Program-made: the position numbers | Assembly (NCBI GenBank): GCA_049976305.1 | Contig: JBMFIM010000003.1 | Coordinates: forward strand, 1 to 55,918 | Length of the DNA: 55,918 bases | DNA from: Candidatus Micrarchaeia archaeon | Lineage (GTDB): Archaea > Micrarchaeota > Micrarchaeia > Micrarchaeales > CABMGC01 | Reading direction: 5' to 3' | In this document: one piece after another, positions 15,001-21,000 of the stretch | Numbering within the stretch: the stretch's first letter is position 1 | Layout of the letters: every line of letters starts with the position of its first letter

Positions 15001-18000
15001 TCTAATTAAATCTCGTTTCCTCTATCTGCGTACCAGCTCTTGACCTTCTGTGGGTTTAGCTTGGAAACAACGTACTTGAAAGTAGCTTCCGGCTTTGATT
15101 CGCTTCCGCACGAGTAGACATCCAATGTCGCATATTCGCTTTCAGGCCAGGTGTGCAAAGCGATGTGGCTTTCCTGTATTATTGCAATCACTGATACGCC
15201 TCCAGGTATGCCATTTATGTCGCTGAATTTTCTAGTTAGAAGCTCCAGTATGTGCAGATTTCCTTCCTTAGCCCCATCTACCACTACCTTTACGAGCCAG
15301 TCAAGATCTGAGAGCTTGCTTACTTCAATTCCGTAAAGATTTCCGTATACGTGCTTTCCCTCAACCTTAGGCAATTGCTTTTCAACAGCCTGAGAAATTT
15401 GTCTTGCCATTTTTATCGATATTAATTTTAATAAAAATAAATAAAAATTTTTGCTATCGAAATTGATTTGTCGTCGTAAAAATTTTTTATTTTTGGAAAT
15501 TTTCGAGGTATTTTTTATACTCAAAAATAAAATTGCAGTTGAATCGCCTCTGAATGATTGCTGAACTGCTATGGGCTGCTTTCTCTATAAGCCTGCAAGA
15601 AAGTATACCACGCAAGGTTTGGAGTTCCGTTTGAAGGATTAGTAAGATTGAGCAAGCCGTAATCGTTGCCTAATGCGCCATCGGAGAGTCCCCAGAGATC
15701 ATACCAGTATACTTGCTTTATGTATGGAAGCGAACTGAACGTGTCTAAGCCTTCTTCCATAAATTCCATTTGCGATTTTTGACTATACCCTGGTATTAGT
15801 TTTGAGCTTGCCGGAAATCCAAATTCAGTAATGAATATTGGCTTATGGGTAAGGTTCTCATACGCATTAAGATATTGAGTCCATTCATCGGAGAAATTTA
15901 TGACAATAGGGCTTGGCAAATAGGCATGAACCGATACTGCATTGCAATACTTCCATGCGCCATAAGACCATACTTCGGCATACCACTCAAATATCTGCGG
16001 GCTTCCTATTGGCGCGCCTCCAAAGCAGACTATTGTAGCATTGGGCTCCAAGCTTCTTATTGTGTTCGCAGCTGCTTTTATGATAAGAAAGTAATTGTAG
16101 GCACTGCCATTTACCATGCCTGTCTGGAACTGTTTCACCCACGGCTCATTCCAAATCTCCCATTCGTTTATCCAAGGATATGCCTCAACAGCAGCTTTTA
16201 CGCTTTCATTCCACATGCCCAAGCTCCAGTTCTTGTCTTGGGAGCCTCCTGGCAATGTATCATAGTCAAGTATTCCTAGATAGCTTGCGTTGTAATGCTC
16301 GTGCTCGTAATTCATCAGCTGGATTTGAGAAGCGGAGAGCGTAATGTCTGTTCTGAAATGCCTAACGCCAGCTTTAAGTGCAGTAATTTCTGAGCTTTCG
16401 TTCCCATGAGTGCAAACGCCAAGTGTGAAGTTGAAATGTCTGCTTTTTATCTGCATAGTTGTTGAACGTTCTGCAAGAAGCAATACGATTGCTGTTACTA
16501 TGATAAGCAAAAGCACAAGCGCCAAAGCGATCTTGGTCTTAGCTTTCATATGCATCACTTTCTTCTTTTGTAATCTCCCTCAAAAATACTGTGGCGTAGG
16601 AGCCGGCTGGAAGTGAAAATTTAAGTTCCACGTCGCTGCCTATTTGCCCAAGCTCTATGCCAATCGCTTTTATGATAAGAGGTCTGAAAGAGCCCTTCAT
16701 GCTCAGCTCCGGCATCCATTTGATCTTGAAGTCTTCTTTTGTTATGCCCAGCTTTTCCAAAATTTTATTCTCATAATCGTTGAGCTTTTCAGTACCATAG
16801 CCGACGATGTTCGAGACTGGAAATTCGCCGCTATTGCTGAGGTTAAGCATGTCTGGAAAGCCTAAGGGGCTTGATGGCGCATAAATTTCTGAAGAAAAAT
16901 CACCTGCTGAAATCCTTTCTTCAAGCTCCATGTTGAATATCAGCGATTGCACCGCGTGTATGAACATGATGAGGATTCCTCTAGGCAGGCGCCTGAAGGC
17001 GTTCGCATAGTCTTTGCCAAACTTTGCTAGATAGGCGAGCATCTGCCTTTCTGGTTTAAGGTATTTCGGAAAGTTTTCAAGCGCCCTTTTGAAGTCGCCT
17101 GTCTCTGCCAGCTCCCTTCTTGCCTCTCTTGCATTCTCATTTCTCTCCCCGTCAATGTCAGATAGGAACTTCATCGCCGCCTCCTCCAATTCGCCCTTGA
17201 TTATCAATAAGCCTATCTCGGCATTGTTCCCCCGCATGCCAAAGCGCTGCTTGTCAAAGTAGTTTGCAACTCTGCCTTCAAGTTCCTGCAGAACCTTTTC
17301 TGCATTCTCCGGCCTTTTGCACTGGCTTATTCTCACCTCGAACCTATTGCCTATGTTGCTGCCAAGCTCGACTCTCTGGCCTAGCCACGCCCCATTTATG
17401 CTTATGTCTTTTATTTTTACCCTTTCCAGCTCCTCAGGCTTTATGCCGTATATGCTTGCAAGCTGCACTGTTATCGCAACCCTGTCTTTGGTGCCCGCGT
17501 AGCTGATTGACTTCTTGCCTCTTTGCAAACGCTTTGCTATGGCTATGAGTGCTTGGACCGTATTCCAATTCCTCTTTTGCAAAACAAAGGTTGTGAATTT
17601 GCTGCTTGGGGCAGGCACCAGGCCCAGATCCTCTGCTTGGTAATGCCTGTTTGGCATGAGCACTGTGCCGTTGCTGAGAATCTCCTCTACTACAAAGCTC
17701 TCAGGCGTTTCCTTTATTTTGCCCCCTGTGCCTTCGTGCTTTGAAAGGTAGATTGGCATTATCAAACCTTTGATAGCAATATTTTATACTTTACAGTTTC
17801 CAATTTTAACGTGATGCTTTGCACGATTCATTGCTTGAGAAGGTTATTTACAAGATAGTGAAAAGGCACATAGCCGGCACCACTATCTCCTCAGCGATAA
17901 AAAAGGTAAGAGAGCTGAACGCCAGGGGCTTGCCGGCTACTGTTACCTTCTTGAGCAATAGCGTCAACGACCTTGCAAAGGCAAGGTATGTCGCCTCTAC

Positions 18001-21000
18001 CTATTCCCAGCTTGTCCAGCAGATAGGAAGATCGGGCCTTAAGGCCACAGTGCACGTACCGCTTAACGACATAGGCTTTTCTATTTCAGAAAGCCAGGCT
18101 TTGAACTATCTTCAAAGCATAATCCAGCTAAGCAACAAGTTCGGGGTTTTTGTCTGGGGCGAACTTCCAGAGGAATCTGATGCTTCTTTGCTAGACGGCT
18201 TGGCTAGGCGTGGGCTTGGCTTAGCAGTGAATGCAGAAAAATGGGAAACCCTGCTTCGGACAAGCCTGCCAGCTAAGCTTGTCTTCAAAACAAACAATTC
18301 TCACGATGACAAAAAAGCACTGGAGAAGAGGCTTGTTGGCATTGAAAAGCTTCTGAAAAGGGGCCAACTCGTACTTAGCTTTCCAGATGAGGGGCTTACC
18401 CACGCGCTGACAAAAAATGCCAAGTACAAAAGCTCTTTAATCTTTGAGTTCCAATTAGGCTATGCCAATAAGGAGCTTAACAGGCTAGCCCAGAAGGGCT
18501 GGAAGGTAAGCGTTTATGTTCCGTTTGGCAAAGGTTGGGCAAACTTCGCCCTTACGCGCATACAAGGCAAGTATACCCATCTTATTGCAAAGAAGCTGTT
18601 AGAAAGGGGGAAATATGCATGAAAAAGGCACTATATGCATTACCGGCGGCAGCGGCAGGCTAGCAAGGACGCTTTCTCCTGCTTTGCTAAATTTGGGCTA
18701 CACTGTTAAAGCGCTAGTAAAGCAGAAGGAGGATATGCAAAGGCTTCCTGCAGGCGTAATCCCTTTTGTCGGCAGCATTGACAATCTGAATGTGCTGAGG
18801 GAGTGCGTAGAGGGGGCTGATTTAGTAATACACGCCGCAGCAATAGTGAAGGAAGCGGGTACAACTACGAAGGAGATAATGCATGTCAATTTTGAAGGCA
18901 CAGAGCTCTTGCTCAACGCCTGCAAGCTTGAAGGTTGCAAGCGCATTATGTTTACAAGCACCATAGATGTTTATGGAAGAGAAAGGAAGGAGGTGCTTAA
19001 CGAAGAAAGCATACCAAAACCCACAGACAGATATGGCTACAGTAAGCTCATGGCCGAGCAGGCGATAATAGAGAGTGGAATAGACTATACGATTTTCAGG
19101 ATTGCAACAATATACGGGCCTGGGTTTGAGCACTACTTTTTCAAGATGTTCAAAGCCATAGTGGAAGGCAAGGTGGCGATAATAGGAGATGGCCAGAACC
19201 ATCTTGCAATGATACACGCGAGGGATGTTGCCGAAGCATTTTTGCTTGCAATCCAGAACAAGTCAAGCATAAGAAAAATTTATGTGCTTGGCGACGGCGT
19301 GCCATATACCCAGGAAGGCTTAATTCGAAAAGCAGCGGAGCTTCTGCGAGTGCCGCCCCCAGAAAAGCATGTAAACAAAAGCCTTGCATTGCTGCTTGCA
19401 AAGAAGCGAGGTCTTGAAAGCGACGAATTGCGTTTCCTCATTTCTAACAGGGTGCTTGACATAAGCAAGATCAAGAGAGAGCTTGGTTTCGAGCCAAAGG
19501 TAAGCATCGATGAAGGCGGCAAGGAGCTTGTTGACATGTTTATCTCTTCAGAGAGGCTGGTGAGATGAAGATAGGAAAAGTCGAGAGAGAAATAAACGAG
19601 ATGTTGGAAGAAAAAGGGGCGCTCATGTTCTTGCTGATAGACCCTGTGGACTATGAAAGCGAGGACGCCGCAGTCAAGGCGGGCAGAGAAGCAATAGAGA
19701 ACGGCGCTGACTGCCTGCTTATTGGCGGAAGCACAGGCGCACAAGGAGAACTGCTTGAAACAGTGACCAAGAGGGTAAAGGAGGAAACCCATGGAGCAAA
19801 GCCCATAATACTGTTTCCCGGGAACATTGCCACTATAACGCGGTATGCAGACGCCATATACTTTATGTCTCTTCTCAATGCAAGGAATCCTTATTGGCTA
19901 ATACAGGCTCAATTGCTTAGCGCTCCAGTAATAAAGCAGATGGGCATAGAGCCTCTGCCAGTTGGCTACATAGTAGTAGTGCCAGGAGGTACAGTGGGCT
20001 GGGTAGGCGACGCTAACCTCGTGCCTAGGGAAAAGCCGAAGATAGCGGCTTCCTTGGCGCTTGCTGGCGAATTCTTGGGAAACAGGTTCATCGTAACCGA
20101 TACTGGCTCTAATCCGAGGCTCCAGGGCTACGGCCCTGTGCCGCCAGAAATGATAAAGGCAGTGAAGAGTGTAATAGACGTGCCGTACATAGTTGCAGGG
20201 GGCATACTGACCGTAGAGGACATAAGGACTGCTTTGCGTGCAGGCGCCGACATATTGCAAATAGGGACTGCTTTGGAAAAAAGCTCAGACGTCAAAAAGA
20301 TTGTAAGCAAGTTCGCTGAGGTAGTGAAGGAAGAGGGCGCGCTGAAGAAGAAAGGAAATGCGTAGCAGGTCATATGCATGAGGGACATAGCTGCTTCTGA
20401 GCTTTTCGTGGCAGTGCAGGAGCTGAAAAGGCTTATCGAGGGCAAGCGCCTTAACAACTTCTACGACTTGTCAGGCAACGCCTTCAGGCTAGACTTCGAG
20501 GAAAACGCTGTTTATGTAAGATTGGGCAAGACCATCAACGCCACAAGATTCAAGGAGGAAGCAGGCCAGGCTTCGCAATTTGCAATAGCTATAAGGAAAT
20601 ATGTAAAGGGCGCTAGGCTGGAAGCAATAAAACAAAGAGGGATGGACAGGCTGGTATTCCTCAAGTTTTCAAGAGGAATAGAAAAATACTGGCTAATATT
20701 TGAGATGTTCGCAAAGGGCAACGCAGTGCTTGTTGACTCAGAGAGGAAAATCCTCCAGGTATTTGCCAAAAGGGAATTCAAAGATCGATCGCTAACTGTG
20801 AGCTCTAAGTACGTGCTACCAAAAGGCTCGAGTTTCAACCTTGCCAAGGCTGATGCGGAAACCTTGGAGGAAAAGATCAAAGAATCTTGTGCAGAAAGCA
20901 ATGACAAGCTTATACGCACGCTTTCATTCATCAACATAGGGCCTTTGTACCTTGACGAGCTTATAAGGCAAGCAGGCCTTGATCCTAATATGCCTGCAAA

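Follow-up and report, generated by a model that had tools for sequence, protein, structure and literature searches.

An SDR gene paired with an altered GGGP synthase as a probable replacement for G1P dehydrogenase in Micrarchaeota

The SDR-GGGPS gene pair and its neighbors

In the window, by which we mean the whole 55,918-nt stretch of Candidatus Micrarchaeia archaeon DNA that was analyzed, an extended SDR gene (18615-19568, + strand, 317 aa) overlapped the gene of a group II GGGP synthase (GGGPS; 19565-20365, + strand, 266 aa) by 4 bases (ATGA). An earlier note on this DNA had described the SDR as fused in an operon with GGGPS; the overlap agrees with this, but the two are separate genes in this genome, with no fusion. 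The span given there (17819 to 20365) ends with GGGPS, but it starts with a third gene and not with the SDR. This third gene, which opens the gene run (17819-18622, + strand) and whose 3′ end shares 8 bases with the beginning of the SDR gene, is a degenerate proline-dehydrogenase-like gene (NF045947, 59 bits; cut-off 500). In a profile alignment to 2ekg its product had lost the catalytic and FAD motifs, with the RLVKGAY, ATHD, and Arg-Arg motifs of proline dehydrogenase absent; these motifs are present in the intact proline dehydrogenase, a second copy on contig C2 of the same genome. The degenerate gene is order-specific (orthologs in 0 of 72 genomes of other orders). The N-terminal part of RqcH/NFACT (20378-21472, + strand) and an RNase Z-like gene (21487-22380, + strand) follow GGGPS; the former is co-located only in the Micrarchaeales order and the latter is co-located there, and both were placed outside the module. 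A GDPD gene lies 2.6 kb downstream of GGGPS.

The pairing was kept in most Micrarchaeales, as had been claimed, and extended beyond the order. In the order sample (n = 121), GGGPS (PcrB) was found in 119 genomes and an SDR ortholog in the same 119; in 115 of these, the SDR lay immediately upstream of GGGPS in the same orientation. Among 72 genomes of other orders, 69 had the SDR ortholog and 68 had both genes, which were adjacent in 34 and within 5 kb of each other in 41; the SDR adjoined GGGPS in 13 of 18 families. Flanks and orientation of the pair varied outside the order, and the SDR was also found near GGGPS genes of the Diapherotrites and Aenigmatarchaeota types. Seven SDR-GGGPS fusion proteins were observed, one of them in the window's own family clade. 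DGGGPS was found beside the pair in the orders DGGGPS>SDR>GGGPS (L276) and GGGPS>SDR>DGGGPS (L302, and L304 with one gene inserted).

One alternative is that the SDR has a different function, such as making a sugar for glycolipids, modifying lipids at some other step, or acting outside lipid metabolism altogether; co-regulation or inertia would then keep it by GGGPS, and the backbone would come from the host. Consistent with this, a block of five genes, RqcH and RNase Z among them, was equally frozen inside the order, in line with the objection of frozen gene order in the earlier note; the genes were apart in about half of the other-order genomes; and in the published view, hosts supply such cells with lipids or lipid precursors. 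Outside the order, however, the objection did not hold: only the SDR followed GGGPS, RqcH was directly after GGGPS in 0 of 40 loci, and the proline-dehydrogenase-like gene did not follow. Together with the fusions, the absence of a nucleotide-sugar loop from the SDR, and the distribution among loci and genomes described below, this makes the alternative improbable.

Residues of the SDR and of GGGPS

The top Pfam match of the SDR was PF01370 (1e-35), and its nearest solved sequences were sugar epimerases. Its best NCBIfam matches were lipid-acting SDRs, OleD (NF042422, 97.8 bits; cut-off 580) and HpnA (TIGR03466, 82.1 bits; cut-off 367.65), both far under cut-off, and these stood with SdmB and the 3-beta-HSD family (PF01073) among its best NCBIfam matches and Atlas neighbors. 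GalE (TIGR01179) was also under cut-off (63.7 bits vs. 262.3), and no G1PDH-type match (PF13685 or NF002022) was found in the protein. A long C-terminal amphipathic insert is common to the SDR and the nearest bacterial group. The DPANN SDRs are not cleanly monophyletic, as bacterial proteins of unknown function branch among them. Gene context differs from that of the lipid-acting SDRs, and Asn195 distinguishes the DPANN group (74 of 77 vs. 7 of 39).

All 156 orthologs had the extended-SDR catalytic residues: N92, S or T at position 116, and Y140 and K144 of the YxxxK motif (19032-19046, + strand), which is shared with GalE, as is the fold. The Gly-rich cofactor motif TGxxGxxG was also present (G11 in 156 of 156 and G17 in 152; the middle Gly in 124, with Ser in 31), with Ala at position 17 in the window protein. 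In nucleotide-sugar epimerases of the GalE type, NAD+ is anchored by an Asp that closes strand 2, and the nucleotide is bound by a short RxGD loop. This Asp was found in 11 of 77 SDR orthologs vs. 11 of 11 generic rows (9 distinct); it was missing in the other 66, and 56 of the 77 had R or K at the next, NADP-type position. The RxGD loop was found in 0 of 77 orthologs, a comparison with a weak control (only 3 of the 11 generic rows matched the pattern). It is replaced by an insert with group medians of 40-46 residues and a net charge of +3 to +9, vs. 13-20 residues in generic nucleotide-sugar SDRs; in the window protein, this cationic amphipathic insert comprises 33 residues (247-279; 19353-19451, + strand). 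The cofactor residues appear reductase-like, and the insert and the likeness to OleD and HpnA suggest a protein built for a lipid substrate rather than for small, soluble DHAP.

These residues bear on the proposal, made in the earlier note, of a GalE-style 2-epimerase turning G3P into G1P. Such an enzyme would invert C2 through a transient ketone, acting either on free G3P or on (R)-GGGP from a G3P-accepting GGGPS. It would be compatible with the fold, with PF01370, and with the nearest solved sequences; the GDPD downstream could release G3P, and the bacterial cassettes described below would work without an SDR. The scarcity of the NAD+-anchoring Asp, the missing loop, and the low GalE score disfavor it; moreover, an epimerase alone gives a mixture, and no general G3P source was found (GDPD in 17 of 61 order genomes; neither GpsA nor glycerol kinase in the five genomes tested). 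We regard this proposal as very unlikely.

GGGPS matched PF01884 (5e-43) and exceeded the cut-offs of the group II models NF003198 (281.5 vs. 247) and TIGR01769 (181.2 vs. 161.55). Its Mg/diphosphate residues (D26 and S56), phosphate loops, and strand-8 Thr (T235) were kept in its 156 orthologs (D26, G181, G213, and G234 in 156; S56 and S182 in 155; T235 in 138). A Tyr/Tyr/Glu set is described as strictly conserved in GGGPS and as the main factor in stereospecificity and catalysis (PMC9385802). The first Tyr (Y135) was present in all 156 orthologs, but the second Tyr in only 3 and the Glu in 1. Thus, at the strand-6 YxE site, Tyr was lost in 153 of 156 and Asp replaced Glu in 155; Glu-to-Asp by itself is common in canonical GGGPS (23 YxD among representatives). 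In the window protein, the motif is V-T-D-T-G-S (177-182; 20093-20110, + strand) where the canonical enzyme has Y-L-E-A-G-S (alignment to 4mm1). On strand 8, Gln232 (20258-20260, + strand) is polar where canonical enzymes mostly have Val or Ile; Gln or His was found here in 154 of 156 orthologs and in 116 of 119 Tyr-less DPANN homologs, with Arg in the other 3. The loss of Tyr from the G1P-selecting YxE motif, combined with Gln or His on strand 8, is new and clade-wide in SDR-linked GGGPS. The roles suggested below for Gln232 and the SDR insert are read from alignments.

Compared with the canonical route, in which G1PDH (EgsA or AraM) precedes a group IIa GGGPS (MtGGGPS, PDB 4mm1), the fold and family of GGGPS are the same, as are D26, S56, Y135, the phosphate loops, and the hexamer-anchor Trp, and DGGGPS and CarS follow in both. 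The differences are that there is no G1PDH, that YLEAGSG has become xTDxGS (or ILE in the Diapherotrites type) with the strand-8 Gln or His, and that the SDR is coupled or fused.

Distribution relative to G1PDH

The reported lack of G1PDH in the window genome (G000, 93.7% complete) was confirmed: PF13685 gave 0 matches (the control was positive in 13 of 14), NF002022 gave none, and tblastn with AraM-like and EgsA-like proteins gave nothing at E < 0.01. In the order sample (n = 121), all six PF13685 matches were other proteins (five AroB-like and one Fe-ADH), leaving 0 G1PDH. With the strict count (NF002022 at E ≤ 1e-18), G1PDH was present in 2 of 401 phylum genomes and 0 of 178 order genomes, vs. 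GGGPS in 139 of 141 genomes. The rarity stated in the earlier note stands, but its presence figures, based on PF13685, are probably overstated.

Both genomes with G1PDH had a canonical YLE GGGPS, and no SDR ortholog was found in either. In G177, which has an AraM-like G1PDH, the genome's own GGGPS had reverted to YLE; it was nested in the Tyr-less clade after the motif columns were dropped (99/95, 100/97, and 99/96). In G282, the operon was swapped in place: EgsA and a foreign canonical GGGPS occupy the slot that holds the SDR and altered GGGPS in its genus-mate G175. These are two switch events only, in genomes 83% and 89% complete. One genome without G1PDH (G172, 90% complete) had the altered GGGPS and no SDR ortholog that we could find, and another (G017) had an additional canonical GGGPS. 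Among metagenome loci, an SDR ortholog was found in 38 of 67 with altered GGGPS vs. 0 of 13 with canonical YxE; when at least 1.5 kb was available on both sides, the counts were 26 of 35 and 0 of 8.

From this co-distribution, the SDR and altered GGGPS very likely (probability roughly 0.85) replace G1PDH and canonical GGGPS in Micrarchaeota; gene context extends this to Diapherotrites and part of Aenigmatarchaeota. The earlier proposal of an ether-lipid role for the SDR, in place of G1PDH, is supported: the pair survives rearrangement, is sometimes fused, has DGGGPS neighbors in some loci, and was not found in the two genomes that gained G1PDH. The chemistry proposed with it is less supported. 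There, the SDR would make free sn-G1P from DHAP, and GGGPS would still use G1P; in a variant that dispenses with TIM, the SDR would instead reduce the aldehyde group of D-glyceraldehyde 3-phosphate. One-for-one displacement, the intact catalytic tetrad, and fusions suited to channeling fit this version too, and both E. coli and FCB bacteria are inferred to have an unknown source of G1P. However, the acceptor site is altered across the clade and has the canonical form in just those genomes that regained G1PDH, and a free G1P supply gives no reason for the site to change; the G177 reversion and the G282 swap are left unexplained. Because the SDR also has lipid-type features and neither GAPDH nor aldolase, which could supply glyceraldehyde phosphate, was found in the five genomes tested, we consider free G1P supply unlikely.

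A proposed route and its stereochemistry

For the replacement of G1PDH by the SDR and altered GGGPS, we tentatively favor, at a little under even odds, a mechanism in which GGGPS prenylates DHAP and the SDR then reduces geranylgeranyl-DHAP. GGGPS, with its stereo-selecting Tyr lost and a Gln or His able to hydrogen-bond a carbonyl, would put geranylgeranyl on the free primary hydroxyl of DHAP. The SDR, docked to the membrane by its cationic amphipathic insert, would reduce the C2 ketone with NADPH, so that the glycerol stereocenter would arise after the first ether bond; DGGGPS, CarS, and GGR would then act as usual. With alkylation first and reduction second, the pathway would parallel the eukaryotic alkyl-DHAP route while using different enzymes. 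By analogy, there is precedent in DHRS7B/PexRAP and yeast Ayr1p, an SDR that uses NADPH to reduce an ether-linked DHAP lipid once one chain is in place (PMC7517302), the same type of reaction as that proposed here. In contrast, that SDR has a transmembrane segment, acts on straight-chain alkyl- or acyl-DHAP, and gives the sn-G3P series, and it works with alkyl-DHAP synthase rather than with a prenyltransferase.

On the archaeal side of the lipid divide, G1PDH is regarded as the defining enzyme. According to a 2025 study, it was lost in the ancestor shared by Iainarchaeota, B1Sed10-29, and Micrarchaeota, and an ancestor of these lineages was unable to make an archaeal membrane (PMC12892359). 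The SDR/GGGPS module has largely the same distribution and would close the gap; if so, these archaea build their own lipid cores, with the stereocenter set by an unrelated enzyme, perhaps at another step. Which enantiomer is made cannot be told from sequence. It is conceivable, but doubtful, that a large DPANN branch sets handedness by the SDR and ends on the bacterial side of the lipid divide, with isoprenoid ether lipids on sn-glycerol-3-phosphate, through reduction of geranylgeranyl-DHAP from the other face or a GGGPS of inverted preference, with single lineages switching back on regaining G1PDH. A G3P-handed product would be a phylum-scale exception to the rule that archaea use G1P.

In one variant, the SDR works as a non-orthologous glycerol-3-phosphate dehydrogenase that converts DHAP to sn-G3P, the GGGPS preference is inverted, and the ether lipids have the bacterial-handed backbone. 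With Tyr lost and Gln or His gained, GGGPS could bind the 2-hydroxyl from the opposite side, and the return of YLE with G1PDH would be accounted for. DGGGPS accepts G3P-based GGGP, M. maripaludis GGGPS favors G1P only eightfold (PMC9385802; PMC5889666), and GpsA was not found over cut-off in the five genomes tested. Seven bacterial-type loci also agree with this variant and count against the favored mechanism: altered GGGPS lies beside lipid genes (GGR, DGGGPS, GGPP synthase, and PlsY), Tyr is restored in three, and no SDR was found in the DNA examined around GGGPS, so that a G3P acceptor fits there at least as well. Against it, the SDR looks lipid-type and not made for free DHAP, and the lack of a DHAP source in the order applies equally. 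In co-culture, the lipid profile with Ca. Micrarchaeum harzensis present was no different from the host's (PMC8975820), in passages that include no chirality test; this weighs against the favored mechanism as well. On balance, this dehydrogenase variant seems a minor candidate. GGGPS and DGGGPS without G1PDH are likewise described in FCB bacteria, Poseidoniales, and Lokiarchaeota, with the backbone source open (PMC7852524; PMC6431249); the bacterial-type GGGPS representatives compared keep Tyr, and the passages of those papers name no SDR partner.

The source of DHAP or G3P had been left open in the earlier note. TIM was found in 9 of 69 order genomes vs. 63 of 72 elsewhere. In the window genome and four others tested each time, GpsA (over cut-off), glycerol kinase, DeoC/class I aldolase, FBP aldolase/phosphatase, PF00596 aldolase, GAPDH, and DHA kinase were not found; with no DHAP source found in the order, the substrate of the proposed geranylgeranyl-DHAP route would have to come from the host. 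For the steps rechecked, the rest of the ether-lipid pathway was present in the window genome, as previously stated: it has a DGGGPS-type UbiA, CarS, and GGPP synthase, and weak matches to GGR.

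Gene order around the SDR and GGGPS genes

The extended SDR and a GGGP synthase (GGGPS, PcrB) with a changed acceptor motif were distributed together, were fused in some loci, and were replaced or reverted where G1PDH was again present. In the window, five + strand genes formed a run: a degenerate ProDH-like ORF (17819-18622), the SDR (18615-19568), GGGPS (19565-20365), the N-terminal part of RqcH (20378-21472) and an RNase Z-like gene (21487-22380). The four-base overlap of the SDR and GGGPS genes described in the earlier note was confirmed. The RqcH homologue comprised just 364 residues, all N-terminal, against 645 in the model, a length comparable throughout the order Micrarchaeales. 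A promoter and terminator scan gave counts at chance level, the signal models being bacterial. Ether-lipid genes of this genome (G000) included a DGGGPS-type UbiA, CarS, GGPP synthase and weak GGR matches.

Within the order, PcrB was found in 119 of 121 genomes and the SDR orthologue in the same 119. The SDR was directly upstream of GGGPS on the same strand in 115 of these; the exceptions were G001, G014, G063 and G072, the last with the pair broken by a contig end. Order and phylum tallies include two unpublished genomes (G068 and G027), and no claim depends on those alone. The five-gene block as a whole hardly varies across the order, so adjacency there proves little. In the other orders of Micrarchaeota (72 genomes, 18 families), PcrB was present in 70 genomes, the SDR orthologue in 69 and both in 68; the two genes were adjacent in 34 genomes (13 of the 18 families) and at most 5 kb apart in 41. 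In 40 GGGPS loci fetched from these orders, flanking genes varied by family, the SDR was sometimes upstream, sometimes downstream and sometimes divergent, and the pair had neither RqcH nor a ProDH-like gene as an immediate neighbor; no ProDH-like orthologue was found among the 72 genomes. Frozen gene order, an explanation raised earlier, therefore describes the block inside the order but fails outside it, and the persistence of the pair with altered flanks rules it out as the sole explanation.

No SDR orthologue was detected in genome G172. Second SDR copies, nearer to the window's family and remote from GGGPS, were observed in four genomes of genus g28 (G005:C20, G037:C2, G049:C9 and G065:C1:338931-339848), and G163 (C1) also had two copies.

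G1PDH and the GGGPS acceptor site

The reported lack of G1PDH in G000 held up in a family search and in tblastn with AraM-like and EgsA-like queries. With NF002022 at E ≤ 1e-18, G1PDH was present in 2 of the 401 genomes of the phylum, neither of them among the 178 of the order; 21 other genomes had weak matches short of this value and are outside the count of two. A hidden G1PDH in the order was rejected, as all six PF13685 matches in a 121-genome sample were AroB-like (five) or Fe-ADH (one).

The absence of G1PDH from Micrarchaeota has already been published (PMC8975820, PMC12892359; both cited from partial text). The former describes a Ca. Micrarchaeum harzensis genome without G1PDH and HMG-CoA reductase. 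The latter (2025) holds that an ancestor shared by Iainarchaeota, B1Sed10-29 and Micrarchaeota lost G1PDH and that two lineages regained the enzyme, and reports araM in Norongarragalinales, WAL and Micrarchaeales; our order count conflicts with the last of these, and the genome sets differ. From the available portions of other papers, G1PDH was detected in some Aenigmarchaeota (PMC8407114), and an unidentified G1P route was inferred for bacteria (PMC7852524, PMC5889666, PMC6431249).

By alignment, the window GGGPS reads FIVTDTGSN vs. LFYLEAGSG in the reference MtGGGPS (4mm1). The second of the conserved Tyr, presumably the binder of the C2 hydroxyl, is lost. The first Tyr was kept in all of 156 distinct GGGPS from Micrarchaeota genomes and titled contigs (other organisms are named in three of the titles). 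The second Tyr was retained in 3 of them and the Glu in 1, whereas 154 had Gln or His at position 232 (window numbering). In the accessible text of PMC9385802, two Tyr and one Glu are strictly conserved in GGGPS and are the proposed main determinants of stereospecificity and catalysis; its MtGGGPS numbering differs from the count on the 4mm1 chain, and residues were matched by motif. The parts of PMC4244643 and PMC7888582 available added nothing on the acceptor site. With residues of this kind changed, the SDR might be a G3P dehydrogenase paired with an inverted GGGPS, which we consider unlikely.

In a search of 1.84 billion proteins, Tyr was kept in 116 of 139 full-length GGGPS representatives. 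Asp replaced Glu (YxD) in 23 of the 116, and Glu-to-Asp was discarded as a diagnostic of the altered enzyme because YxD is common among canonical ones. Most Tyr-less GGGPS formed one clade with the Micrarchaeota enzymes. Near homologues lacked Tyr in 119 of 119 cases and had Gln or His in 116; those with names were mainly Diapherotrites and Aenigmatarchaeota. Judged by its sequence, the window GGGPS is a family member that lacks the full G1P triad. Extra domains were observed in GGGPS proteins of 393-545 residues (P0026, P0061, P0132, P0137 and P0327).

Two genomes had switched back. G177 (89% complete) carried an AraM-like G1PDH and a GGGPS with YLEAGSG and Asn at 232. This GGGPS reverted in place, since even with the motif columns removed from the tree it nested among altered enzymes, in three clades with strong support. 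No SDR orthologue was found in G177, where the best SDR matches branched with generic nucleotide-sugar enzymes; in its family-mate G137 the SDR orthologue adjoined GGGPS. In G282 (83% complete), the gene immediately after EgsA was a canonical GGGPS, which branched with bacterial-type sequences. These two genes occupied the slot of the SDR and altered GGGPS in the genus-mate G175, with the same flanking genes; GC content was even along the contig, and an SDR orthologue was not found. Two events, both in incomplete genomes, are suggestive and non-statistical. The altered GGGPS has probably lost efficient use of G1P, because otherwise the G177 reversion and the G282 swap would be needless. A supply of free G1P by the SDR, as the earlier note had proposed, would leave both changes needless in the same way, and we think it unlikely.

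An exact DNA pattern for the canonical motif, which other spellings escape, matched 20 of 401 genomes; three matches were GGGPS (G177, G282 and G017) and 17 were chance or unrelated proteins. G017 retained the native pair, had no G1PDH and carried an extra canonical-motif GGGPS, which was divergent and two genes ahead of a GGR-like gene (L372:3035-5542; G017:C6). In addition to its AraM-like gene, G177 encoded a 742-residue protein (L232:4665-6893; G177:C44) whose C-terminal domain was G1PDH-like and whose long N-terminal part was unassigned.

Loci beyond the phylum

Of 80 metagenome loci, 67 had altered GGGPS and 13 canonical GGGPS; the SDR orthologue accompanied 38 of the former and 0 of the latter (26 of 35 vs. 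0 of 8 for loci flanked by 1.5 kb or more on each side). In Diapherotrites-type loci the SDR was often tail to tail with GGGPS. Gene order was DGGGPS, SDR, GGGPS in L276 and GGGPS, SDR, DGGGPS in L302, and L304 resembled the latter with one inserted gene. L275 and L287 encoded single-chain SDR-GGGPS proteins (609 and 598 residues) beside DGGGPS. Seven SDR-GGGPS fusion proteins, one named Aenigmatarchaeota, were obtained by database search; the SDR halves of fusions fell in four places in the tree, one of which, represented by the single record P0314, lay inside the family of the window. Unassigned genes lay between or beside DGGGPS, SDR and GGGPS (L287:4151-4903, L276:2220-3029, L304:6760-7689 and L275:4615-4893); some had N-terminal motifs that looked HAD-like by eye, and the three scanned had no NCBIfam match at 1e-14.

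In seven bacterial-type loci (L281:1739-7035, L296:2923-7433, L288, L289, L290, L293 and L310), altered GGGPS accompanied PlsY and lipid genes, and Tyr was restored in three. Their cassette was GGR-DGGGPS-GGPP synthase-GGGPS, with PlsY, NusA and ClpP-like neighbors, and the GGGPS in it descends from altered enzymes of the Aenigmatarchaeota-type clade. The SDR was absent from the fetched DNA of all seven, the surrounding genomes being outside the search. That the SDR has another role in lipid synthesis, or none, seems rather improbable.

The literature searched, mostly open papers without supplements, made no mention of the SDR, its fusion or the altered motif. The SDR and altered GGGPS are filed here as a new form of the archaeal ether-lipid pathway.

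Proposed chemistry and three-carbon supply

The window SDR was under every NCBIfam cut-off (top matches, OleD and HpnA) and is an extended SDR outside the named families. Among orthologues, the catalytic N, S/T and YxxxK never varied. The NAD-type Asp was present in 11 of 77 orthologues sampled vs. 11 of 11 generic rows (9 distinct), and Arg or Lys was next to that position in 56 of the 77. Following the usual pattern in SDRs, we read Arg or Lys without the Asp as a sign of probable NADPH use. The nearest solved sequences are sugar epimerases of low identity, and Atlas neighbors are 3-beta-HSD/epimerase clusters. Where GalE-like enzymes have a short nucleotide loop, the SDR has a cationic amphipathic insert of 33-46 residues. 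An epimerase is accordingly the least probable of the readings weighed here. The insert is read as a putative membrane anchor, and a bacterial group with the same insert branched among the DPANN SDR sequences. We infer that this enzyme reduces a lipid with NADPH.

The altered GGGPS would prenylate DHAP to geranylgeranyl-DHAP, which the SDR would then reduce. This is the simplest chemistry that fits both poor use of G1P and a lipid reductase, and we give it a probability of approximately 0.45. Labelling work on haloarchaea reportedly led to an earlier proposal of attachment before reduction, for which a literature search gave no confirmation. The eukaryotic alkyl-DHAP route has the same order, with reduction after chain attachment. 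In that route the SDR DHRS7B reduces alkyl-DHAP (PMC7517302, partial text).

All enzymatic readings depend on a three-carbon phosphate, supplied by the host or through some unidentified step. TIM was present in 9 of 69 order genomes vs. 63 of 72 elsewhere. GpsA, glycerol kinase, three aldolase families, GAPDH and DHA kinase were found in none of the five order genomes tested each time, in searches that left out PF01116 aldolase and GlpA/GlpD. A glycerophosphodiester phosphodiesterase gene (GDPD, 22939-23631) lies 2.6 kb downstream of GGGPS, but GDPD was rejected as a general backbone source because only 17 of 61 order genomes carry it. Co-cultures of Ca. Micrarchaeum harzensis show the host lipid profile (PMC8975820, from the text available). 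The missing three-carbon source, the SDR-less bacterial loci, G172 and these host-like lipids count against DHAP prenylation followed by reduction.

The ProDH-like protein is a candidate for the three-carbon supply step or for a non-catalytic partner. In families f1 and f3 its gene is the first of the run, and it is confined to the order that is also mostly without TIM; this coincidence amounts to one event, and the gene persists in TIM-bearing members.
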